Made by a program: the position numbers and the translations under genes. A stretch of DNA of 40,965 bases from a virus, in the IMG/VR virus record IMGVR_UViG_3300045988_118480, positions 1-40,965 of that record; one strand, given 5' to 3'. How positions within the stretch are numbered: position 1 is the first letter of the stretch; each line of letters opens with the position of its first letter. Under the pieces are notes generated by a model that was given only the letters and a program-made list of their open reading frames with translations, was not told the origin of the DNA and ran no database searches. Positions 3,911 through 34,243 of the stretch are shown here, in pieces.

Positions 3911-4507
3911 TCATTCATGTCCTTCCACCGCTTCGCCGCCGTCGGATTCCAGAATGATTCCAGATTCCGTGAAGAAAGCCGGCCGGACGCCGAGGTTGCC
4001 GTCGCACGCGTAGGCGTTGTACAGACTGCCGACCGTGCTGACAAGGCGCGCGTGGCGCGCGTGGCCGGCGTACGGGGTGACAAGCCACCACCAGTCGTCC
4101 AGGGACAGAAGGGCCTTGTGCTTCAGGAACAGGGCTTCGGGAAGAAGGCTGATCTTCGCCTTCATGTTGCCATAGCCGAAGCCGCCGCGATGGTCAGCCA
4201 GGGACCAGTCCGCGGTCACGATGTTCGCGGAACGGATCGGACCGCCGGCGGCGTCGAAGGCCGCCAGGAAGGGGCCGTTCAGTTCGTCCTTCAGGTAGGA
4301 CAGACTGAAGTCGTTCGGGTAAGGGGTAGGGGCTTCCTCCGGACGGGTCTTCATGGGTTCCAGGGAGAAGGGGCGCCACGCGACCGCCTGGTCGGCGATC
4401 AGAAGGGTCGTTCCGTTGGTCATGTGATCCAGGACGCGGACGTCGATCGGGCCGGCGTCAAAGACGGCCCCAGGGGTCAGGTCCTTCAAAGTCTTAATAT
4501 TTGCCAT
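3911..4507 (-). CDS. Hypothetical protein, DUF6273-like (WWWLVTP...GVRPAFF motifs), 198 aa
   Basis: SD aaggagga precedes ATG 4507. The motif resemblance is from memory only. Confidence 0.7.
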   Translation of the reverse strand: MANIKTLKDLTPGAVFDAGPIDVRVLDHMTNGTTLLIADQAVAWRPFSLEPMKTRPEEAPTPYPNDFSLSYLKDELNGPFLAAFDAAGGPIRSANIVTADWSLADHRGGFGYGNMKAKISLLPEALFLKHKALLSLDDWWWLVTPYAGHARHARLVSTVGSLYNAYACDGNLGVRPAFFTESGIILESDGGEAVEGHE

Positions 4508-4634
4508 GTCGTTTTCCTCCTTCGATTATTTCGATAGACACTTCCACACGGGGTTTCTTCGGGTCCACAGCGACGTCGTCCGCGAAGCCCTCAATCTGGT
4601 TCCAGCCGTCGTTCAGCTTGATGTTGGTTATAGA

Positions 4635-5081
4635 TCAAAACGGCAGGTCGCCGTCCTCAAAATCGGTCTCGGCAAAGTCGGACAAGGGGTCGGTTATATC
4701 GTCCAGCTCAGCGGCGATATCTCGCCCGGCGGGTCTCCCGCTTCCGGCGCTGCCTCTATCACGCTTTGGCTCGGCGAAAAATACCTCTTCGGCCACGACC
4801 TCGACCGCCTTACGCTTATTGTCATTGCGGTCGGTCCACATGCGGGTCTGTATCCGCCCCGAGAGGGCGACCAGCTGACCCTTATTAAAATACTTGCAGA
4901 CAAACTCGGCCGTCTTGCCCCATGCGACGATGTCGATAAAATCGGTCTCGGGCTGTTCGCCGGCCCGCGCGTAGGATCGGGCGACGGCCAGCGCGAAGCT
5001 GCATACCGACGTGCCGCCCTGGGTCTGCTTCAGCTCGGGCGCCGCCGTCAGGCGACCCATGAGCACGGTCTTATTGAGCAT
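4635..5081 (-). CDS. ssb: Single-stranded DNA-binding protein (148 aa)
   Basis: MLNKTVLMGRLTAAPELK... is an OB-fold pattern, and the protein ends in an acidic tail FEDGDLPF. SD gagggagga. Confidence 0.95.
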   Translation of the reverse strand: MLNKTVLMGRLTAAPELKQTQGGTSVCSFALAVARSYARAGEQPETDFIDIVAWGKTAEFVCKYFNKGQLVALSGRIQTRMWTDRNDNKRKAVEVVAEEVFFAEPKRDRGSAGSGRPAGRDIAAELDDITDPLSDFAETDFEDGDLPF

Positions 5082-5083
5082 CC

Positions 5084-5635
5084 TTACATCCTCCCTCTGT
5101 TTTCCGGCGCTGCCGGCATCGGCATCCAATGGGTGACGATCCACTCGGAGGGATCGCGCTTGCCGGTCAGCTGCCATCCGGCGTATGACGTCCACCATCC
5201 AGTGGACACTACCCCGGCGTCGCGCCGGTTGCTGTATGCGTATATCAGGACATCCTCATCCTCCGGCGGGGAGGTATGTACGCTTGTCCACTCGGCCGTC
5301 CCCGCGGACTGTAGCCGGGCGATCTGCTTGTGGGCGTCAATGAGATCCTCGTTGATGGATATGAGCATATCCCGGGCGTCATATTTGAGGTCTTTAGCGC
5401 AATTCCGGCTTTTGCCAAAATATGCACATTTTTGACAATCGCCCTCATCGCCGCTATGCGTGCATCGCCACAGGCTGTCGACGATCCTATCAAACACGCT
5501 GCCGCCTATCGGCTCAAGCCCGAAGAGGCTGCGATCCTTAAAATGCTCGCATACGCCGTCCATAGCGGCGTCGGTATCGACCTTATGGGCGCACACCTCG
5601 TAATGTACGCAGTCCCTGCACATCTTCGTCAGCAT
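5084..5635 (-). CDS. Cys-rich protein with a C-terminal DUF551-like domain (183 aa)
   Basis: The C-terminus (EWTSV..PPEDEDVLIY....WIVTHWMPMPAAPE) resembles DUF551. ATG 5635 follows SD ggagga. The track start at 5641 is TTG. Confidence 0.7.
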   Translation of the reverse strand: MLTKMCRDCVHYEVCAHKVDTDAAMDGVCEHFKDRSLFGLEPIGGSVFDRIVDSLWRCTHSGDEGDCQKCAYFGKSRNCAKDLKYDARDMLISINEDLIDAHKQIARLQSAGTAEWTSVHTSPPEDEDVLIYAYSNRRDAGVVSTGWWTSYAGWQLTGKRDPSEWIVTHWMPMPAAPENRGRM

Positions 5636-7593: not shown

Positions 7594-7806
7594 TCACTGT
7601 CCCTCCATCCACCGGATAAAGGCCAGCCGGGGGAACCGTACCTGGTGGCCATAGACCATGTAGGGGAAGGGAAGCAGCTCCGGCCGTTCCCGCGCCATAA
7701 GGCGCAGCGCGTGCGGGTCGATCTCCACGACCTGTGACACGACGTCGGCGGTCAGCATCTCCCTGTCCATCGCGCGGACGTCATCAAGACTGAGTTTCTT
7801 TTTCAT
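7594..7806 (-). CDS. Excisionase/MerR-type HTH protein (70 aa)
   Basis: MKKKLSLDDVRAMDREMLTADVVSQVV..D...LRLMARE..LPFP....G..VRFPRLAFIRWM. SD aaggaggga. Confidence 0.6.
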   Translation of the reverse strand: MKKKLSLDDVRAMDREMLTADVVSQVVEIDPHALRLMARERPELLPFPYMVYGHQVRFPRLAFIRWMEGQ

Positions 7807-8257
7807 CTTTCGCTCCCTCCTTTTTGGCATTGTAGATTACAAGCATAGATGGAAATGGTGCCCCGTCGGCGCTATTTCCATTTTCATCTTCAAAATGTAT
7901 TCGCCCTCGTAGAAACCGGATGTCCGCTTTGCCATAAATATAGTCGTGGAAATATGCCGTATCGGTTCGGGCCGGAATTAACAAAACTATAGGGAATCCC
8001 CCCCTTGCCTCATCAAAGGCCTTTTTTACCCATTTCCCAATTTCGCGGCCGTAAGGGGGATTGCAAAATACGGCGCCGCCTTTATCCCAGCTTTGAGCCA
8101 GACCGTCCGTTTCTGGGGTGTAGTACAAAGGACATTTTGCTGTCTCTTCTGTTGCTGCCGGGTCTAAGGCGAAATTAAACTCGGCATTGAGTTTGTCAAA
8201 AAAGTCCTGTGGCGTACACCAACACATATTTTTAGAGGATAACAGCGTCTTGTTCAT
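7784..8257 (-). CDS. Phage Dam-type N6-adenine DNA methyltransferase (157 aa)
   Basis: WCTPQDFFDKLNAEFNFALDPAA...FCNPPYGREIGKWVKK...LIPARTDTAYF...FLRGRIHF matches the T1/phage Dam family (PF05869-like). Confidence 0.85.
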   Translation of the reverse strand: MNKTLLSSKNMCWCTPQDFFDKLNAEFNFALDPAATEETAKCPLYYTPETDGLAQSWDKGGAVFCNPPYGREIGKWVKKAFDEARGGFPIVLLIPARTDTAYFHDYIYGKADIRFLRGRIHFEDENGNSADGAPFPSMLVIYNAKKEGAKDEKETQS

Positions 8258-8450
8258 CTTCCGCCCCTTCCTCCGAAAGTGTCCGCACGATTGCCGCGAC
8301 CTGTTCAAAGTCCAAATAGATGGGCTTGTTCTCTGTGATCCCCTTGATGTCATATCCGACGACATTCCCGAGGCCGTCCCGTTTTAGCGTGAATTCTGTG
8401 CATTTGACATCAAATACGACGCCGCTTTTAAGGACTATCCTTATCGTCAT
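8232..8450 (-). CDS. Hypothetical protein (72 aa)
   Basis: SD aaaggag sits 7 nt before ATG 8450. Confidence 0.55.
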   Translation of the reverse strand: MTIRIVLKSGVVFDVKCTEFTLKRDGLGNVVGYDIKGITENKPIYLDFEQVAAIVRTLSEEGAEDEQDAVIL

Positions 8451-8482
8451 TTGTCTCACTCCTTTCCGCCCGCTTCAGCGGG

Positions 8483-8671
8483 CTATTCTTCGGCGTAGAA
8501 CATCGTCCAGTCGAAGTCCAGTACCGCCGCAATACGTTTTGCCACGGCGACTGACGGGCGTCGATGGCCGGTCTCTATCATGTTGTAATACTGTTGGGAC
8601 ACTTCAACTTTTCTTGCGATGGCCTCCTGTGTCTGACGTGTCGCCACACGCAATTTTTTTAAATCAATAAT
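8483..8671 (-). CDS. Cro-like XRE-family HTH protein (about 62 aa; no canonical start codon, ATT proposed)
   Basis: HTH segment LKKLRVATRQTQEAIARKVEVSQQYYNMIETGHRRPS. A strong SD (aaaggagg, 8680..8687) is followed in frame by gca act ATT ATT. The track start (TTG 8758) lies upstream of the mapped promoter. Confidence 0.65.
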   Translation of the reverse strand: MIDLKKLRVATRQTQEAIARKVEVSQQYYNMIETGHRRPSVAVAKRIAAVLDFDWTMFYAEE

Positions 8672-8688
8672 AGTTGCTTCCTCCTTTA

Positions 8689-8739
8689 CACCATTTTGTT
8701 GTTCGTCTATGTTTGCAATATTATCACCATTTTGTTGTT
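8689..8739. promoter_or_regulatory. Two 15-bp direct repeats caccattttgttgtt (8689..8703 and 8725..8739), candidate operators
   Basis: Exact repeats 36 bp apart. One fills the spacer of the leftward promoter and the other lies in the cro-like leader. Confidence 0.55.
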
Positions 8740-8746
8740 TTGTCAA
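8718..8746 (-). promoter_or_regulatory. Leftward (lytic/cro-like) promoter: TTGACA, 17-nt spacer, TAATAT
   Basis: On the minus strand, -35 at 8746..8741 and -10 at 8723..8718. Confidence 0.65.
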
Positions 8747-8774
8747 TAGAGATATCAACGTTTTGGCGTTGTAC

Positions 8775-8803
8775 TTGCATACAACTTTTCGTTGTTATAT
8801 TAT
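8775..8803 (+). promoter_or_regulatory. Rightward (repressor) promoter: TTGCAT, 17-nt spacer, TATTAT
   Basis: -35 at 8775..8780 and -10 at 8798..8803, just upstream of the SD and ATG 8822. Confidence 0.55.
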
Positions 8804-8821
8804 TGCAACGAGGTGATACTC

Positions 8822-9130
8822 ATGGATACATGCCGTCTTAAAGCTCTTATAACCGCTTCTGGCCACTCTCAAAAAGACATAGCCACGTCTCTCAATTTGG
8901 GCCAGCAGCGCTTTAATTACTATGTAACGGGCAAACGTGAGCCGGACAATAGCACCCTTGTTGCCATAGCTTCGTTTTTTAATGTCTCGACCGATTATTT
9001 GCTCGGCCACTCTGACAGCCCCACGCCGGCACGTGACAATTTGCTTAAAATGGCTGCCGAGACTGATGATCCGGAAGAGCTGCTTGCTTTGCTGGACATT
9101 GTCAATAAAAAACTACAAGAGAGAAAATAG
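8822..9130 (+). CDS. CI-like XRE-family repressor (102 aa; no peptidase domain)
   Basis: MDTCRLKALITASGHSQKDIATSLNLGQQRFNYYVTGKREP is an HTH_3 pattern. The gene is divergent from the cro-like gene. Confidence 0.8.
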   Translation: MDTCRLKALITASGHSQKDIATSLNLGQQRFNYYVTGKREPDNSTLVAIASFFNVSTDYLLGHSDSPTPARDNLLKMAAETDDPEELLALLDIVNKKLQERK

Positions 9131-9141
9131 GAGGATCTATT

Positions 9142-10134
9142 ATGAGCACATCCGGCCTTGATGCTTTGCAAAAGGGGATCACAGCAAAGGAACCGGTCTA
9201 TAAGATAGCTAAACCGATCCGAAAGATGACAAAGCCATTGACTTTTATCGGGGTATTTCTGCTTGTCAGTTTCTTTTTTATAGCCACGGATTCGGCTCCG
9301 GAGATCTTACAACGATTGTGGACCTATTCTTTTGCCCTTTGGTTTTATTTTTCCATTGGTTTCTCGATCAGTCGATCTATCGGTGTGAGATACATTAACA
9401 AAAACGCCTGGCAGTTACCTTCGCTTTTGTCAGATATGGAAAAGTCCTATGACCTCGAAGAATATTTCCAAAGCCGAGATGAACTTATTAAGTATCTCTG
9501 TAAAATGGCAAGATGGGAAAACTATAAAAGTGCGCTCAACTCAAAGCCGACCGTCTTGCTTGCCGAACTGGAAACAACAAAGACAGAAAGTATAAATAAC
9601 GCAATCCGTCGCTCTGCCGCTCATTGCCGGGACCTTACCCGCAAACATAATTCATCCTTCGCCGAAATCCTAAAAGATGATATTTATAGTCATCGTGGCC
9701 GCCTGAACGATGAGAATATGGCTGTATATGAGGAATGTTATAAGAGCGTTGAATCTTTGGCCCAGGTCGTCGGAACAATAGATGAGGTCGATATTATGTC
9801 CGGCAATGACTTTGAGCATTGGTGCGCCGATCTACTGGCTCACAACGGATTTACCAACGTCATTGTCACTCAGGCCAGCGGCGACCAGGGCGTTGACGTC
9901 ACAGCCACAAAGGGCGGCGTCAAATATGCTGTGCAGTGCAAATGTTATTCTTCAGACCTCGGCAATACTCCGGTGCAGGAGGTCTATGCCGGTAAAGCAA
10001 TGTATGAGTGTCAGGTAGGTATTGTTATGACCAACCGGTACTTTACGGCGGGCGCAAAGACTCTTGCCGCCAAAACCGGCGTGCTTCTTTGGGACAGGGA
10101 CAAATTAATCGAGCTTATGGCAAACAAGATATAA
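9142..10134 (+). CDS. Membrane-anchored protein with a C-terminal Mrr-type (PD-(D/E)xK) restriction endonuclease domain (330 aa)
   Basis: Two hydrophobic helices (FIGVFLLVSFFFIA and YSFALWFYFSIGFSI). C-terminus: GNDFEHWCADLLAHNGFTNVIVTQASGDQGVDVTA...YAVQCKCY...VQEVYAG. It starts 9 nt after cI, and SD aggagg is present. Confidence 0.8.
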   Translation: MSTSGLDALQKGITAKEPVYKIAKPIRKMTKPLTFIGVFLLVSFFFIATDSAPEILQRLWTYSFALWFYFSIGFSISRSIGVRYINKNAWQLPSLLSDMEKSYDLEEYFQSRDELIKYLCKMARWENYKSALNSKPTVLLAELETTKTESINNAIRRSAAHCRDLTRKHNSSFAEILKDDIYSHRGRLNDENMAVYEECYKSVESLAQVVGTIDEVDIMSGNDFEHWCADLLAHNGFTNVIVTQASGDQGVDVTATKGGVKYAVQCKCYSSDLGNTPVQEVYAGKAMYECQVGIVMTNRYFTAGAKTLAAKTGVLLWDRDKLIELMANKI

Positions 10135-10163
10135 AAAAAGAGCGCCCCGCGGGGCGCTCTTTT
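10133..10163. terminator. Bidirectional rho-independent terminator
   Basis: An A7 run, the agagcgcccc/ggggcgctct palindrome, then TTTT. It sits between convergent genes. Confidence 0.8.
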
Positions 10164-10816: not shown

Positions 10817-11983
10817 ATGCAATGCAAGAGCTGTAAGGGCCAAATCCCCGAGGGCGGGCGCTTTTGTCCATTTTGTGGCCGAAAAGTGGCCGGATTAAAA
10901 AAGCCGAAGCAGCGCGGCAACGGGCAGGGGACCGTATACCAGCTGCCCAATAAGACATGGATCGCGGCCCGTGTACAATATGACGTCGACCGCAACGGCA
11001 AAATGCGCAAGCGGTCAATATCCAAATCCGGCTTTAAAACCAAAAAAGAGGCCCTCGAGCATCTGCCGTCGCTGTCGCTGGCCGCGGTCGATCTGCCCGG
11101 CAAGCCGGCGCGCAGGAATACGGCCGTTACGTTTGGACGGTTGTATGATCTGTGGCTGCCGACCCACAAGGCGTCAAAATCGACGATTGACTGCTATCGT
11201 GCCGCTTCCCGATACTTTGCCGCCGTGTGGGATATGCAGATCGCAGACATAACGGTCGACGACCTGCAAGGCTGCCTGGATGATTGCCCCAAGGGCAAGC
11301 GCACCATGCAAAATATGAGGGCGCTGTGCGGGCTTATGTATAAGTACGCCATCCCGCGCAATCTCAACCCCACCGGGCTTAATATGGCCGAGTATCTGAC
11401 CATCAATGCCGACAATACATTTGACCCAAAGGATGCGCTGCCGCTTGACGCCCTGGCTAAGATAGAGCGTGCCGTCGGCGTCGTGCCGGGCGCGGACTAT
11501 GTTGTCTGTCAATGCTATCTCGGCTTCCGGCCGTCGGAGCTGCTTGCCCTCGACGCCATCAATTATAATCGCAAGGAGCAGGCCCTTGTCGGCGGCGCAA
11601 AGACCGACGCCGGGCGCGACCGCGTCGTCACCATATCCCCAAAGATCCAGCCGATAATTTCCCGGCTGACAAAAGACCGGGTATCCGGGCCTATATTCTG
11701 CACACCTTCAGGCGGCCGGATGACCACAAAGGCCTACCGTGCGCTGTTTTATTCGGTGTTGGACGCCTGCGGCATAGACAATCCCGTCATAGCGGCTAAC
11801 GGCGTAGAGCGTCGCCGGTACACGCCGCACAGCTGCCGCCATACCTTTGCGACCCTGCTTAAAAACATCAATGCGGCCGACAAGGACAAGCTGGAGCTTA
11901 TGGGACATACCAGCGATGCAATGCTCCGACACTATCAGGATGTATCATTCGCCGACCTGCGCAAGATAACCGACGCAATTTAG
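10817..11983 (+). CDS. int: Tyrosine recombinase / phage integrase with an N-terminal zinc ribbon (388 aa)
   Basis: CKSC-x10-CPFC at the N-terminus. C-terminus HSCRHTFATLL...LMGHTSDAMLRHYQD (the R..HxxR..Y pattern). SD aaggagg. Confidence 0.92.
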   Translation: MQCKSCKGQIPEGGRFCPFCGRKVAGLKKPKQRGNGQGTVYQLPNKTWIAARVQYDVDRNGKMRKRSISKSGFKTKKEALEHLPSLSLAAVDLPGKPARRNTAVTFGRLYDLWLPTHKASKSTIDCYRAASRYFAAVWDMQIADITVDDLQGCLDDCPKGKRTMQNMRALCGLMYKYAIPRNLNPTGLNMAEYLTINADNTFDPKDALPLDALAKIERAVGVVPGADYVVCQCYLGFRPSELLALDAINYNRKEQALVGGAKTDAGRDRVVTISPKIQPIISRLTKDRVSGPIFCTPSGGRMTTKAYRALFYSVLDACGIDNPVIAANGVERRRYTPHSCRHTFATLLKNINAADKDKLELMGHTSDAMLRHYQDVSFADLRKITDAI

Positions 11984-30220: not shown

Positions 30221-30265
30221 AAACAAAAAAGAGCCAACCGGCCGCACGATGCAGCCGATCAGCTC
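30221..30265 (-). terminator. Imperfect long hairpin plus U-run inside the structural region (minus strand)
   Basis: The minus strand reads gagcugaucggcugc-aucgu-gcggccgguuggcuc followed by UUUUUUGUUUU. Confidence 0.5.
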
Positions 30266-30288
30266 CTATTGCTCTTCCCCGACCCCGA

Positions 30289-30423
30289 TTAGTCGGAGGC
30301 TCTATGTTTGATTGTCTTTTTGACCTCGAGGACGATTATCCTGTCGCCCTTACGCCGGACCTCGGCGTCATTGCCGCGCTTTAAGATGGCCTCTATGGCC
30401 TGCATAATTTCGTTACGATCCAT
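30289..30423 (-). CDS. Small hypothetical protein (44 aa; not in the ORF track)
   Basis: My manual translation gives MDRNEIMQAIEAILKRGNDAEVRRKGDRIIVLEVKKTIKHRASD. SD gaggtg sits 4-5 nt upstream, and the gene starts 3 nt after the previous stop. Confidence 0.45.
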   Translation of the reverse strand: MDRNEIMQAIEAILKRGNDAEVRRKGDRIIVLEVKKTIKHRASD

Positions 30424-30426
30424 GCG

Positions 30427-30699
30427 TCACCTCATGGCGTTCTCCTGGAGGTATTCCAGGCCCCTAAGCGTGATCCGTATTTCGTCGGGATTTTCAAGGC
30501 AGAGCCCGCCCTCTCTGTTGGTATACAACTCGACGTTTTTGATGAGCCCCGCGTCCTGGAGCATCTCCAGATAACGGTATTGACGCTCTGTGGACACTCC
30601 CATTGCATCAAGCGCAAGATCCGAGATGTCAAACGCGGGCAGGTCCATCGAGCGCTCCAACGCCTGTAATATCTTATAGATCGCCTTAAGGTTATCCAT
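30427..30699 (-). CDS. YjcQ-like winged-helix protein (90 aa)
   Basis: Similar in size and pattern to phage YjcQ-family proteins (..YKILQALE....GLIKNV....LT.RGLEYLQEN). Confidence 0.55.
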   Translation of the reverse strand: MDNLKAIYKILQALERSMDLPAFDISDLALDAMGVSTERQYRYLEMLQDAGLIKNVELYTNREGGLCLENPDEIRITLRGLEYLQENAMR

Positions 30700-30737
30700 C
30701 AGTCAATTACCTCGATGCTCTCAGCTCCCAGGCGTAA

Positions 30738-31040
30738 TCACTTTACGCCCTGTTCCTTCAGATAGGCTTCGTATTCCGGCGGTATGCCGATGTCGTAGTT
30801 TTTGTAATAATGCAGGAACTCAAGAGGAAATCTAAACTCTCCGTCGATATACTGCCCGGCCGTAAGATCTTCCCCCGTGAAAATATCAAGTGATTCTAAG
30901 CACGCCAAAGCCGGGGACAAGGATTCGATGTGTCTGATGATTGCCTCTCGACTTAGGGTGTTTTTGAATTTTCTGTAGTCCTCAAAATCTTCTTTACTGC
31001 TTCCATACGGCATTCCCTTAAAATATCCAAAAAGCATCAT
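30738..31040 (-). CDS. Small protein ATGA-coupled to the MuF-fusion gene: candidate immunity/partner protein (100 aa)
   Basis: Its start overlaps the stop of 31037..32797. It shares the same low-GC patch as the upstream C-terminal domain. No domain recognised. Confidence 0.65.
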   Translation of the reverse strand: MMLFGYFKGMPYGSSKEDFEDYRKFKNTLSREAIIRHIESLSPALACLESLDIFTGEDLTAGQYIDGEFRFPLEFLHYYKNYDIGIPPEYEAYLKEQGVK

Positions 31041-32797
31041 TTAACTCTTCTCCTTTCGTTAGGCTTATAGGTGATAAACATACCTTCGCCAAACTCCCCA
31101 ACATACATTTTGCCTTGTTCGGTCACAAATAATGTGTCGTTTGGTGCCTGCACCGTGACGCCCAATGCATTAGCCAACTCTTCTGCAAAACAGTAATCGT
31201 CTCCGATACGTTTGCCCGTGCTGCAAGATATCAGCCGTATATTTTGCCCGTTCCACTCCTTACTATGGCGGATGATCGAGGCGAGCAACCTCGGCGACAT
31301 ATTGGCTTTTTTTGATCCAAACGCAACCGCAGTAGGTGAGCCGTGCATTGCCACATCGTAGTACGATTCAAGCGGCTTGACCTTTTTGACGTTTTCTGTC
31401 AGCGGGTCGCCATCCGGAAAGCAGGAAAAACCATTTTCTAACTTTATTGTACGTCTTTTTACGATGTCCGTCAAGTTGTCGCGGGTATCCGCGCCGAAAT
31501 AGCTCAGCGTATCCTCGTCGGCTTTGACTTCGAGGGCGACGCGCTCTTCCCTCTGACTTTTGATTTTTTCCGCTTCGGCGAGGCTCTTGTCATCGACATA
31601 ACTTACCTTGACGCGCTCCCGCTGTTCCGGCAGGCCTGCGGCCTTGCTGAATTCACGGTATTTTTTGTTGAGCCGTATCAGCCGGGCGTTTGCGGCCTTT
31701 TTGTCATCGGACAGACCGTAGGCCTCCAATGCCTTTTTGCGCCGCTTCTGTTTTCGGATTTCCCTTTCCAGGCGGCGCTGCATCTGCGTCGCCTCATAGG
31801 CCGAGTATGTGCGGCCGTCGTATGTGCAGCCGAGCTTGTCGTCTATATGGGCGAGCTGCTCATCGGTCCATGTCCGCTCCGAGACGCCCTCGACAAAGGG
31901 AAACCATGTGTGCCGGCAGTTGGCGCCCTCGATGCCCTGGACGTCGCCGATGCCGCAGCGCTCGGCAAAATCCGGGTAATCCCCTTTTGATGTCCCGGGG
32001 TATTTGAGGGTATACTCATGCCACCGGTACACCTTGCCTTGCCATGCCTTGTGATTTTCCCAGCCCTTGGGGCCGTCGATGTCTCGCGCGCCGGCATGGG
32101 CCTCGGTCTCCACCAGGTCGGTCTCGACATACTCCATTGATTGCTCGGCGTACCTCGAGTTGAGCTGTGCAACCCCCGTCATAACGGCACGGCGGGCAGC
32201 GACGTCGATCTGGTCGACATGCCCCGTCTCATAGCTGACCGTCTTTAGGCCGCTGTCGGCAAGCTGCTTGATGCTGTTGGTTATAGCCTGGTTATAGCTG
32301 ATGACCCCGCTGTCTACCTGCATCAGGGCATTGTCCAGCGCCCATTGATATGCTTCAGCCGGCGGCAACATCCTCCGGCCGTTGTCAACCAAAAAGCCCA
32401 TTGATGCTGTTATATTCCGGCAGGCATCGAGGGTCTGCCGCTTGATCGCGTTTATGGTCATCGCGTCGACAAGGATATCCGGCTGGGTGATCTGCGTGAG
32501 GTCGATCATGCCGGTATAGTATGTCTGATTGCGCTGGACCACATCGTCCAACAGCTGATCCAGCTTTTGCTCGCTGATCTTTGACGTCTGCCGGATAGCC
32601 TTTTTGATCTCGTCGAGGGGGATACCCTGGGCACGCAGCGCCCGGATGGCCTGCACCGTGACCTCGTTGAGCTGGTCCTTGATGGCAAGGCGGCTGCATA
32701 TCTCGACAAGCAGCTGATCCTCGAGCGCACGGTACAGATCCGCAAGTTCCTCCGGCATGGCGTCGAGGATGGCGGGGGAAAAGGGGTATCTTGCCAA
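31037..32797 (-). CDS. Head morphogenesis protein (minor capsid protein 2 / SPP1 gp7 / MuF group) fused to an unrelated C-terminal domain of about 156 aa (586 aa; TTG start)
   Basis: ETEAHAGARDIDGPKGWENHKAWQGKVYRW and its position after the portal identify the N-terminal part. The C-terminal extension reads YYDVAMHGSP...NIRLISCSTGKR...VTVQAPND. Confidence 0.85.
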   Translation of the reverse strand: MARYPFSPAILDAMPEELADLYRALEDQLLVEICSRLAIKDQLNEVTVQAIRALRAQGIPLDEIKKAIRQTSKISEQKLDQLLDDVVQRNQTYYTGMIDLTQITQPDILVDAMTINAIKRQTLDACRNITASMGFLVDNGRRMLPPAEAYQWALDNALMQVDSGVISYNQAITNSIKQLADSGLKTVSYETGHVDQIDVAARRAVMTGVAQLNSRYAEQSMEYVETDLVETEAHAGARDIDGPKGWENHKAWQGKVYRWHEYTLKYPGTSKGDYPDFAERCGIGDVQGIEGANCRHTWFPFVEGVSERTWTDEQLAHIDDKLGCTYDGRTYSAYEATQMQRRLEREIRKQKRRKKALEAYGLSDDKKAANARLIRLNKKYREFSKAAGLPEQRERVKVSYVDDKSLAEAEKIKSQREERVALEVKADEDTLSYFGADTRDNLTDIVKRRTIKLENGFSCFPDGDPLTENVKKVKPLESYYDVAMHGSPTAVAFGSKKANMSPRLLASIIRHSKEWNGQNIRLISCSTGKRIGDDYCFAEELANALGVTVQAPNDTLFVTEQGKMYVGEFGEGMFITYKPNERRRVK

Positions 32798-32812: not shown

Positions 32813-34243
32813 TTACTCTAACTCGTTTTGATCCTCTGTCGTCATGTCCTGCATCTTCGGCAGGGCCGCTTTGGCCGTCTCCTCATCCTCATTTAGCCAT
32901 TTTGCCCTAAACTCCCAATCGTTGAGGATGCCTGCGGACAGCAGCTGCATGTCGCGGCTAAAGTCCTGGCTCTTATCCTCAATGATGCTATCGTCAAAAT
33001 CTATAGATATCTCGACATCCTCGTCGAGGCCCAGCCCCATTGCTGTATTGCCGAGACGGAGGATGATGCGGCACAGCTCATCAAGTGCCTGTTCCAGGAC
33101 GATCTCATGCTTTTTGATCGTCCTAAACATCGTACTGTTTTCCGACACGATCTGTGTCGCGGTCGCCACGCTGCCGCCGTCAAAGCGATAGTATGTCTCG
33201 CCGAGCCCGCACTTGCTCGACAGGATGTTGAGCTGATCCTGTATGCCGCGGTTATGCTCGGCTGTCCTTAGGGTCATGTCTATCGGCGTGATGGCGGCGC
33301 CGTCGCTCACATCCTCCGGGAGCACGTAAAATACAACGTCGGCCGGGTCAAATGCCGGCTCTCCGTCGAGGTATGTGCTGGCTGCCGGCTTGACCATTAT
33401 GCGCTTTTTGCCGAGCACAAACTCGTTGACATAACTGTCATAGGCGATATCGACGCCTTGCAGCACATCTATGGCATTGGCGTATACCGATATTCCCACC
33501 GGCAACAGGTAATTGTAGTTGTTGGCCAGATTTGGCCGATCAATGACAAATTGCCGCTTCGTGCTGCCGGTATGCACTACCGGCGGGATCCTCTCAAATC
33601 CCTCGACATTGGTCAGCAGCTCATCGGCCAACAGCTCATTATCGTACCGGTATATCCGGTTATCTATGGCATAATTGCCGTTGTCCTCCTTGTGATGTAT
33701 CTGGAGGTACATGTATGTATGCCCGCCGCGGACAAAGACGCTGGCAAAGGCGCACTCGGATATGTATCCGTTTTGCCACGACAGGGGATAGATGTTGTCA
33801 ATGGTCACATAGTCCAGCACGATGCCCTCGGCATTGCCGGGGACGATGCTGCCGTCCTCGCTGATCTCCTGGCCAACGACGCGGGGGATATATGCCACCG
33901 TGCCCAGCGCGGATTTGAGCTCCTGCATCTCGTTGGCCTTGACCTCAAAGTTATTTTCCTTCAGGACGCGGTCGACAAACGCTTGTTCGCGCTCGCCCTC
34001 GAGGGTGATCTTGACCTTTTCGGTCAACAGCAAATTGGCCCAATCCTCGCACAGCTTTTTGGCCATGCCGAGGGAATATCTCTTGCAGTTGATGATATGC
34101 TCGCCGTTGCGGACGCGGTAGCGATGGAAACCCTTGACGTCCCCCTGATACCACATCCGCCACTCGTTGACCTTGCCATAAAAGGCCTCGGGGATGGTCG
34201 TATATCCCAGCTCATTAAGTTTGACAATTACTGCGTTGCTCAT
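32813..34243 (-). CDS. Portal protein (SPP1 gp6-like; 476 aa)
   Basis: Size, position after TerL, and a typical N-terminal pattern (WRMWYQGDVKGFHRY). Confidence 0.9.
   Translation of the reverse strand: MSNAVIVKLNELGYTTIPEAFYGKVNEWRMWYQGDVKGFHRYRVRNGEHIINCKRYSLGMAKKLCEDWANLLLTEKVKITLEGEREQAFVDRVLKENNFEVKANEMQELKSALGTVAYIPRVVGQEISEDGSIVPGNAEGIVLDYVTIDNIYPLSWQNGYISECAFASVFVRGGHTYMYLQIHHKEDNGNYAIDNRIYRYDNELLADELLTNVEGFERIPPVVHTGSTKRQFVIDRPNLANNYNYLLPVGISVYANAIDVLQGVDIAYDSYVNEFVLGKKRIMVKPAASTYLDGEPAFDPADVVFYVLPEDVSDGAAITPIDMTLRTAEHNRGIQDQLNILSSKCGLGETYYRFDGGSVATATQIVSENSTMFRTIKKHEIVLEQALDELCRIILRLGNTAMGLGLDEDVEISIDFDDSIIEDKSQDFSRDMQLLSAGILNDWEFRAKWLNEDEETAKAALPKMQDMTTEDQNELE

Follow-up and report, generated by a model that had tools for sequence, protein, structure and literature searches.

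A predicted clan-CD cysteine protease domain and a coupled small gene at the C-terminus of a phage MuF2 head protein: a candidate toxin-immunity cassette

Genes in the portal to scaffold region

The window examined here is a 40,965 nucleotide stretch of viral DNA (IMG/VR record IMGVR_UViG_3300045988_118480, positions 1 to 40,965), and its subject is the 3′-end of a minor head protein gene together with the small gene that follows it. The head protein gene, a 586 aa open reading frame (ORF) at 31037..32797 (-) with a TTG start, is directly downstream of an SPP1-type portal gene. It and the small gene are located between the portal and scaffold genes, within the head morphogenesis module. Residues 8-383 of the predicted protein belong to Pfam Phage_min_cap2 [PF06152] (E-value 3e-81), and a PHROG search places the core in phrog_581, minor head protein (E 1.5e-92). 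An earlier note, made from the sequence without database searches, had assigned residues 1 to about 400 to the MuF group and placed the gene after the portal, and both assignments are borne out. This MuF2 core would be the part of the protein for incorporation into the virion. The remainder of the fusion consists of a charged linker and a C-terminal domain (CTD), and the small gene is referred to below as the partner. The features of this region are as follows.

32813..34243 (-): portal protein gene; Pfam SPP1_portal [PF05133], E 7e-17
31613..32797 (-): MuF2 / Phage_min_cap2 core, residues 1-395 of the fusion; PF06152 and phrog_581
31475..31612 (-): charged linker, residues 396-441 of the fusion; low column conservation before residue 442
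31040..31474 (-): CTD, residues 442-586, predicted cysteine protease domain (CPD)-like module of clan CD; AlphaFold2 and Foldseek
31343..31345 (-): codon of His485, predicted catalytic His, motif V-A-M-H-G; invariant in alignments A1 and A4
31223..31225 (-): codon of Cys525, predicted catalytic Cys, motif R-L-I-S-C-S-T-G; invariant in alignments
31050..31054 (-): Shine-Dalgarno AGGAG of the partner gene, inside Arg codons of the CTD tail (N-E-R-R-R-V-K); read from the sequence
31037..31039 (-): stop codon of the 586 aa ORF
30738..31040 (-): partner gene, 100 aa, predicted cognate immunity protein/inhibitor; linkage to the CTD and orphan copies

The motifs and ORF coordinates given in the earlier note are all present, with ETEAHAGARD at residue 230, HKAWQGKVY at 249, YYDVAMHGSPTAVAF at 479, NIRLISCSTGKR at 519 and LGVTVQAPND at 545, as is the His-Gly...Cys order, in which the His is residue 485 and the Cys residue 525.

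The G+C content of the CTD and partner together is 0.455, the window mean being 0.541 (z = -1.86), with 5% of segments of the same size equally low. The difference is strong at third codon positions (GC3), with values of 0.53 for the CTD and 0.52 for the partner compared with 0.70-0.75 for the MuF core, portal, scaffold, capsid and yjcQ genes, and the codon composition of the cassette is foreign. The sharp fall in G+C described previously rests on exact counts (25/60 at 31041..31100 and 40/60 at 32041..32100) and does continue through the partner, but it is sharp only at GC3 and moderate in overall G+C.

In public records the fusion protein is named 'minor capsid protein' or, in IMG, 'MerR regulator', the stand-alone forms of the CTD 'hypothetical protein' and the partner 'hypothetical'. 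The IMG label, 'DNA-binding transcriptional MerR regulator', is attached to a 573 aa version of the fusion (31076..32797). It is a misannotation of a MuF head protein that probably comes from a sub-threshold MerR_1 match (E 0.18, residues 47-70).

Exchange of C-terminal tails among related MuF proteins

The 3′-end of the gene was compared in 80 viral contigs with the MuF cores closest to that of the window (63-70% identity). In 48 of these the MuF protein is short and ends at about residue 400. The window-type CTD is found in 17, two of which are cut by a contig end, and the remaining 15 carry other extensions of 120-190 aa. The extension is, as had been supposed, not general to gp7/MuF homologues. 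Three of the other tail types, which make up most of the 15, are recognised by Pfam models of polymorphic-toxin domains, namely Ntox50 [PF15542] (E 3e-18 and 3e-19), CdiA_C [PF18451] (1.4e-17) and PBECR2 [PF18810] (1e-11), and a fourth type of 120 aa is not recognised by these models. Most of the other tails are followed by their own distinct small ORF, though none was found after the two CdiA_C tails.

The linker (residues 396-441) is the point at which the different tails are joined in these relatives. A blastn comparison with a phage that has the short MuF form (L109), and a scaffold gene 78% identical to that of the window, places the edges of the variable region precisely. Homology stops at window position 31617 and restarts at 30390, and L109 has 51 bp in place of the 1226 bp of the window (30391..31616) that include the linker, CTD, partner and a YjcQ-like gene. 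From these comparisons, the C-terminal position of the MuF protein appears to be a toxin slot with modular exchange.

The location of the CTD and partner within the head module, between portal and scaffold, would also suit ordinary head-assembly parts such as a maturation protease and its regulator, with no role in conflict, and no separate prohead protease is seen among the genes examined from the terminase side to the capsid. Such a role is very improbable given that the module is dispensable, being missing from 48 of the 80 closest relatives with the same portal/MuF/scaffold layout and replaced by other tails in 15. Its foreign codon composition, and the presence of the same module on unrelated MuF backbones and outside prophage head modules, also speak against a part in assembly.

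Linkage and translational coupling of the partner gene

A second set of loci was collected on the basis of the CTD and comprises 106 loci, some on viral contigs and others in the genomes of Oscillospiraceae and further Clostridia, homologous CTD loci being present in bacterial genome assemblies. A partner homolog is directly downstream of the CTD in 103 of these, and the other three are at a contig end or have a partial CTD match. The linkage holds for CTDs on PF06152 backbones, PF04233 backbones and backbones with no Pfam match, as well as for stand-alone CTD ORFs of 145 aa. In the set of 80 chosen by their MuF core, a partner gene accompanies the CTD in 15 of 17 loci, the two exceptions ending at a contig edge, and is found in none of the 63 related loci that lack the CTD (Fisher p = 2e-14). 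The 100 aa gene thus follows the CTD in every untruncated locus, and the co-variation of the two that the earlier note proposed is therefore seen.

In one of these loci (L083), a stand-alone CTD and partner are followed by a 335 aa protein of the Fic/DOC family (4177..5184; PF02661, E 3.4e-6), and a truncated scaffold-like ORF is upstream. The arrangement looks like a decayed prophage head module that has retained the cassette.

The ATG of the partner (31040..31038) overlaps the TGA of the fusion (31039..31037), and the junction reads TAAATGATGC, which agrees with the overlapping start reported earlier. Across the loci, the CTD stop and the partner start either overlap as ATGA or are a few bases apart. 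In 29 distinct tails, AGG and AGA make up 80% of the Arg codons for the ten final CTD residues, compared with 23% in the rest of the same ORFs. This bias indicates that the conserved RRR tail doubles as the AGGAG ribosome-binding site (RBS) of the partner, and the translational coupling of the pair is conserved.

The tail itself (31040..31060 (-) in the window, and in loci L001-L103) has the form PN-E/Q-R-R/G-R-x-K, and its conservation at the protein level is partly driven by a nucleotide-level signal. A role for this basic tail (PNxRRRxK) as an anionic-ligand site, like the pocket for inositol hexakisphosphate (InsP6), was considered and dropped, as codon analysis attributes much of the conservation to the embedded partner RBS. 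In locus L085, a TAA replaces a Gln codon five residues before the usual end of the CTD, and the Shine-Dalgarno and the partner are intact.

A promoter scan found four sigma-70-like sites where 2.4 ± 1.8 were expected, a count that is not above chance. One of them (TTGACG-17-TACAAT, 10/12), at 31446..31474 (-), is at the linker/CTD boundary. Its position coincides with the start point of the stand-alone 145 aa CTD ORFs in other loci, which may mean nothing.

The partner is modelled by AlphaFold2 with a predicted local distance difference test score (pLDDT) of 95.8. A fold search with this model found no match in the PDB, the best having E 2.8 and a template modelling (TM) score of about 0.2. 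The partner and 40 homologs match no Pfam family at E up to 0.1, one chance match aside, the Imm families including Imm36 being among those searched.

Extent and predicted fold of the C-terminal domain

The earlier note had treated the last 156 aa of the fusion as an unrelated extension, and these residues, like the 100 aa partner, have no match in Pfam, PHROGs, NCBIfam or PADLOC. The boundary was refined using homologs from a collection of 5.8 billion proteins, which place the conserved domain at residues 442-586 (145 aa), with a variable, charged linker (~396-441) ahead of it. The CTD is strongly conserved, with D464, D481, H485-G486, H511, C525-x-T527-G528, C536, E539 and N543 invariant or nearly so.

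An AlphaFold2 model built from 35 sequences (pLDDT 90.9, predicted TM score 0.86) predicts an alpha/beta domain. A hydrophobic strand (domain residues 39-43) leads into H45-G46, and the next core strand (79-83) leads into C85. In a Foldseek search of the PDB, the top six matches to this model were all C80 CPDs, from Vibrio cholerae MARTX (3eeb, 3fzy, 3gcd) and Clostridioides difficile TcdB (3pee). The next ranks are CHAT [7y84], a gingipain [6i9a], legumains and caspases, all listed as clan-CD members. Tce1, a type VI secretion system (T6SS) effector of Pseudomonas aeruginosa [9qpe_G], is also among the matches (TM 0.48/0.40, root mean square deviation 3.8 Å). The E-values are weak throughout, and the families returned are those expected from the clan-CD dyad order that had been pointed out from the sequence.

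H485, L522 and C525 are the only invariant columns in the broad alignment (A4), which extends down to ~25% identity, and H485 and C525 are the only invariant polar ones; both are also invariant in alignment A1. Conservation of this His and Cys, as foreseen, extends across the family. Of 125 domain instances found in proteins of ≤1000 aa, 117 retain the dyad, and the others are mostly truncated fragments. On this basis the CTD is predicted to be a CPD-like cysteine protease of clan CD, an assignment drawn from fold similarity, motif order and residue conservation, since sequence searches against the PDB returned only chance matches.

Breadth of the family and relatives in giant toxins

A CTD profile was searched against 1.84 billion cluster representatives (clusters at 50% identity, E ≤ 1e-3) and matched 2166 representative clusters. 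Among 111 representatives of ≤1000 aa, recognisable N-terminal domains are Phage_Mu_F in 19, Phage_min_cap2 in 13 and VG15 in 5, with occasional extra domains (RelA_SpoT, PBECR3, ATLF and LPD3). None of the 111 matches DUF4347 [PF14252] at 0.001. Nearly all proteins of ≤1000 aa end with the CTD, the median number of residues beyond it being one. The fusion partners are PF06152, PF04233 and backbones with no Pfam match, and the CTD also occurs as a stand-alone 145 aa ORF, so that it appears to move between delivery backbones. A tblastn search of INPHARED phages with the CTD found no match. One MuF PF04233-CTD homolog of 783 aa (P0242) has an Intein_splicing match at residues 296-548, between the MuF domain and the CTD.

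The profile further detects giant proteins (1100-6800 aa), in which the matches are internal and number two to eight. The dyad is retained in 50 of 63 of these copies and some are plainly degenerate. Three of the giants were scanned with Pfam. Two have a WXG100-like N-terminus, a mark of type VII secretion substrates, one has PI3/PI4-kinase domains and another a TcdA/TcdB-type glycosyltransferase domain, in both cases adjacent to the CTD-related copies. All three have weak DUF4347 matches that overlap the matches to the CTD profile. As only these giant relatives match DUF4347, the link between the CTD and DUF4347 would be at superfamily level.

Six giants (P0241, P0247, P0274, P0306, P0310 and P0311) are 2800-6800 aa in length and have three to six CPD-like copies each. 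P0241 has copies about every 450 aa and four PI3/PI4-kinase stretches, P0310 includes the TcdA/TcdB-type glycosyltransferase domain, and P0247 and P0310 start with the WXG100-like domain. All six look like MARTX-style multi-effector toxins exported by type VII secretion.

These relatives raise the question of whether the CTD acts only in cis, as a releasing peptidase that cuts the linker in the new host or in the capsid and has no target in trans, with the partner as a timing inhibitor before packaging. The nearest folds are autoprocessing CPDs, and in the giant WXG100 toxins the two to eight copies are internal and alternate with effector domains, as processing domains do (PMC3482391). A few MuF proteins also bear another effector-type domain (RelA_SpoT, PBECR3 or ATLF) besides the CTD. 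The window protein, however, offers nothing but MuF to release, and its CTD fills the slot that is used by nuclease toxins in sister phages. Partner genes without a CTD, described below, fit protection against an incoming activity and make little sense as a timer for an absent protein, and C-terminal caspase-like domains are probably toxins too according to Zhang et al. 2012 (PMC3482391). A purely cis-acting role is accordingly regarded as rather unlikely.

Partner genes without a C-terminal domain

When genomes were searched with a partner profile, the CTD was mostly found upstream, and several loci have a partner and no CTD. At locus L201, two partner genes belong to an array of small genes, together with a homolog (45% identity, E 2e-13) of the ORF found after Ntox50 tails and a fragment 60% identical to part of a 419 aa protein, unassigned by Pfam, that precedes the small genes of L198. 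In L198 and L204 the partner is second, after another small gene, and in L198 that gene follows the 419 aa protein. The Ruminococcus bovis chromosome [CP039381.1; L221, 5470..6318] has, in tandem, one homolog of the partner and one distant paralog (E 2e-6); genes for a recombinase and IS66 are nearby, and a CTD is absent from the surrounding 6 kb. The exact protein sequence of the close copy is found on 98 contigs. This locus is a candidate orphan-immunity island in a cultured isolate. Another cultured bacterium, Ruminococcoides intestinihominis CLA-AA-H171 (L213), has a MuF-CTD fusion together with its partner. A Pfam scan of the neighbours of orphan partners gave one weak ADP-ribosyltransferase match, which is below the family cut-off.

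The orphan partners, some of them in arrays that resemble immunity islands and beside other toxin/immunity units, show a pattern that would be expected of immunity genes kept against an incoming toxin, and a chaperone or timing role would be harder to reconcile with it. The partner might instead be a helper that the CTD needs, whether a chaperone, packaging adaptor, second subunit or co-effector, rather than an inhibitor. Strict linkage and translational coupling would be equally expected for an obligate helper, and the partner is unlike any known immunity family or fold. Against this, orphan and tandem partners that lack a CTD adjoin other small immunity-like genes, and immunity genes directly follow the toxin module in 89% of MuF toxin genes (PMC5576092). 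A helper role is on balance considered improbable.

Neighbouring genes and other features of the window

Two further genes of the window bear on the context of the cassette.

30427..30699 (-): YjcQ-like winged-helix gene; PF09639, E 5.8e-16
10817..11983 (+): integrase gene; phrog_1 integrase, E 2.9e-45

The YjcQ-like gene was considered as a third member of the cassette and rejected, as it is missing from most CTD and partner loci and is present after Ntox50 cassettes. Copies that are 74-75% identical follow the Ntox50 cassettes in L128, L131 and L132, and yjcQ appears to be a separate module that moves independently of the CTD cassette. The integrase indicates that the phage is temperate, as expected for MuF toxins.

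A terminator-like hairpin at 30229..30267 (-), with an 18 bp stem, 9 G-C pairs and a T run, is located between yjcQ and the scaffold gene, in backbone DNA common to the window and L109. It would end a portal-MuF-partner-yjcQ transcript ahead of the scaffold and capsid genes.

A second and larger low-G+C stretch is found at about 8000..10150 (0.42-0.46 compared with the window mean of 0.54), upstream of the integrase. It shares DNA with the upstream part of a DNA methyltransferase gene (7784..8365), and the only matches of a 330 aa ORF inside it (9142..10134) are to PHROGs of unknown function. This stretch is probably a further moron region that was acquired.

Relationship to known systems

Jamet et al. 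2017 (PMC5576092) described the polymorphic MuF toxins of temperate phages and the immunity genes downstream of them, and reported the toxins to be restricted to temperate phages and abundant in gut phages, with about a third of the C-terminal extensions having no recognised domain. MuF-based delivery was also included in Zhang et al. 2012 (PMC3482391). Ejection of SPP1 gp7 with the DNA is established, and the same is assumed for MuF toxins (PMC5576092, PMC5512222). The window fusion matches this class, to which the earlier note had referred it, in slot and layout. It has an N-terminal domain of the MuF superfamily (defined in PMC5576092 by PF04233, PF06152, MuF3 or MuF4; here MuF2, PF06152) right after the portal gene, then a variable C-terminal extension and a small ORF of <150 aa. 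The phage is temperate, Firmicutes-infecting and from the gut, and its sister phages bear Ntox50, CdiA_C or PBECR2 at the same junction. It differs in that the CTD is outside the recognised Pfam toxin domains, and would be placed in the class 'extension without known domain', and in that the downstream gene belongs to an unannotated family with a predicted fold that has no relative in the PDB.

The C80 CPDs of MARTX and large clostridial toxins (3eeb, 3fzy, 3pee) are the best structural matches of the CTD. They share the His-Gly...Cys order at the ends of consecutive core strands, with a His-Cys spacing of 40 residues in the CTD and 45 in TcdB, and the CTD has relatives in giant multi-effector toxins, some with a TcdA/TcdB-type glycosyltransferase domain. 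However, Pfam and PDB profile searches detect no sequence homology between the two, and the CTD is 145 aa in length compared with about 200-250 aa. The CTD is terminal and in a phage structural protein, whereas C80 domains are internal, and it has a dedicated partner protein, which they do not. Activation of the CTD by InsP6 would also be implausible in a bacterial cytosol.

Tce1 of P. aeruginosa, a DUF4347 protein, and its paralog Tce2 were presented in a 2026 paper as CPD-like putative cysteine-protease effectors (PMC13323088). These and the Shigella type III secretion system (T3SS) effector OspB are small CPD-like domains with a His/Cys dyad that are effectors themselves. Tce1 is a fold match of the CTD, and the giant-toxin repeats match both the CTD profile and DUF4347. 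The window CTD, in contrast, falls below the DUF4347 model, and Tce1, Tce2 and OspB are delivered through a T6SS or T3SS instead of a phage capsid. The presumed targets of Tce1 and Tce2 are eukaryotes.

Caspase-like C-terminal toxin domains (Tox-Caspase), with a phyletic spread that includes Caudovirales, were catalogued by Zhang et al. 2012 (PMC3482391), who argued for a dual release and toxin role. The likeness to Tox-Caspase and Imm36 is that a polymorphic toxin has a caspase-like peptidase as its last domain, and the difference is that the partner matches none of the Pfam Imm families, Imm36 included. The comparison is one of concept, and the CTD family may fall within that set. The suggestion in the earlier note that the effector chemistry may be new is overstated because such domains were already catalogued and the predicted activity is clan-CD proteolysis. 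The system type, the fold and the chemistry are known, and what is not described is the sequence family of the CTD and that of the partner.

Proposed role of the cassette

The architecture of the fusion, the exchange of tails at the slot, the linkage of CTD and partner, the conservation of the dyad, the fold similarity and the conserved coupling point to a cassette of the polymorphic MuF type, with toxin and immunity gene, in a temperate phage that infects Clostridia of the gut (Oscillospiraceae and relatives). We favour this reading with moderate confidence. By analogy with SPP1 gp7 and MuF proteins, the MuF2 core would bring a few copies of the fusion to the portal inside the capsid, from which they would be ejected with the DNA into the next host. 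There, the CTD would act through His485 and Cys525 as a compact cysteine protease of the CPD/C80-DUF4347 type. It probably cuts itself free from the MuF anchor or attacks one or several host proteins, or combines the two activities. The ATGA-overlapped start and embedded RBS would allow the partner to be made in a fixed ratio with the fusion. As the predicted cognate inhibitor, the partner would silence the protease in the producer and protect lysogens and cells with orphan copies.

The CPDs of MARTX, TcdA/B and OspB are activated by eukaryotic InsP6. This cue would not be usable here because a phage toxin is made and used in the same kind of cytosol, and a protein inhibitor, instead of InsP6, may distinguish the producer from the target cell. 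A more specific form of the proposal, which we put forward only tentatively, is that the CTD is a CPD-type protease active in the bacterial cytosol and switched not by InsP6 but by a dedicated inhibitor protein with a fold not seen before. It would be injected from the capsid and cleave a specific host protein, for example a defence or lysogeny-decision factor, and bacteria would have captured orphan inhibitors as protection.

Several results weigh against a toxin-immunity cassette. Most characterised relatives of the CTD fold are cis-processing domains rather than toxins. The matches to C80 CPDs have probabilities of 0.94-1.00 but weak E-values (0.015-0.033) and a TM score of about 0.46. The window CTD has no Pfam match at E up to 1, Peptidase_C80 [PF11713] and DUF4347 included, and phmmer and profile searches of PDB sequences with the CTD, the A1 profile and the broad A4 profile gave only chance matches (ostreolysin and a gingipain adhesin fragment). 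Distance matrices of the CTD and partner are correlated (r = 0.81, Mantel p = 0.001 in a mirror-tree comparison), but this is not counted as evidence of co-evolution because the correlation between the CTD and the N-terminus is equally high (r = 0.87) and co-evolution adds nothing beyond shared ancestry. The promoter scan found no significant internal promoter from which the partner alone could be expressed in lysogens. Lastly, Tce1 and Tce2 are non-toxic in Escherichia coli and have no immunity genes (PMC13323088).

The prediction gives a large unannotated family (2166 clusters) a testable chemistry with named catalytic residues, and the partner family, whose confidently modelled fold is without a PDB relative, may represent a new class of inhibitors of clan-CD proteases. 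The CTD family would link phage head proteins, giant type VII multi-effector toxins and the DUF4347/Tce effectors. If the protease acts in trans, its target would reveal what a temperate phage gains from injecting a protease with its genome.

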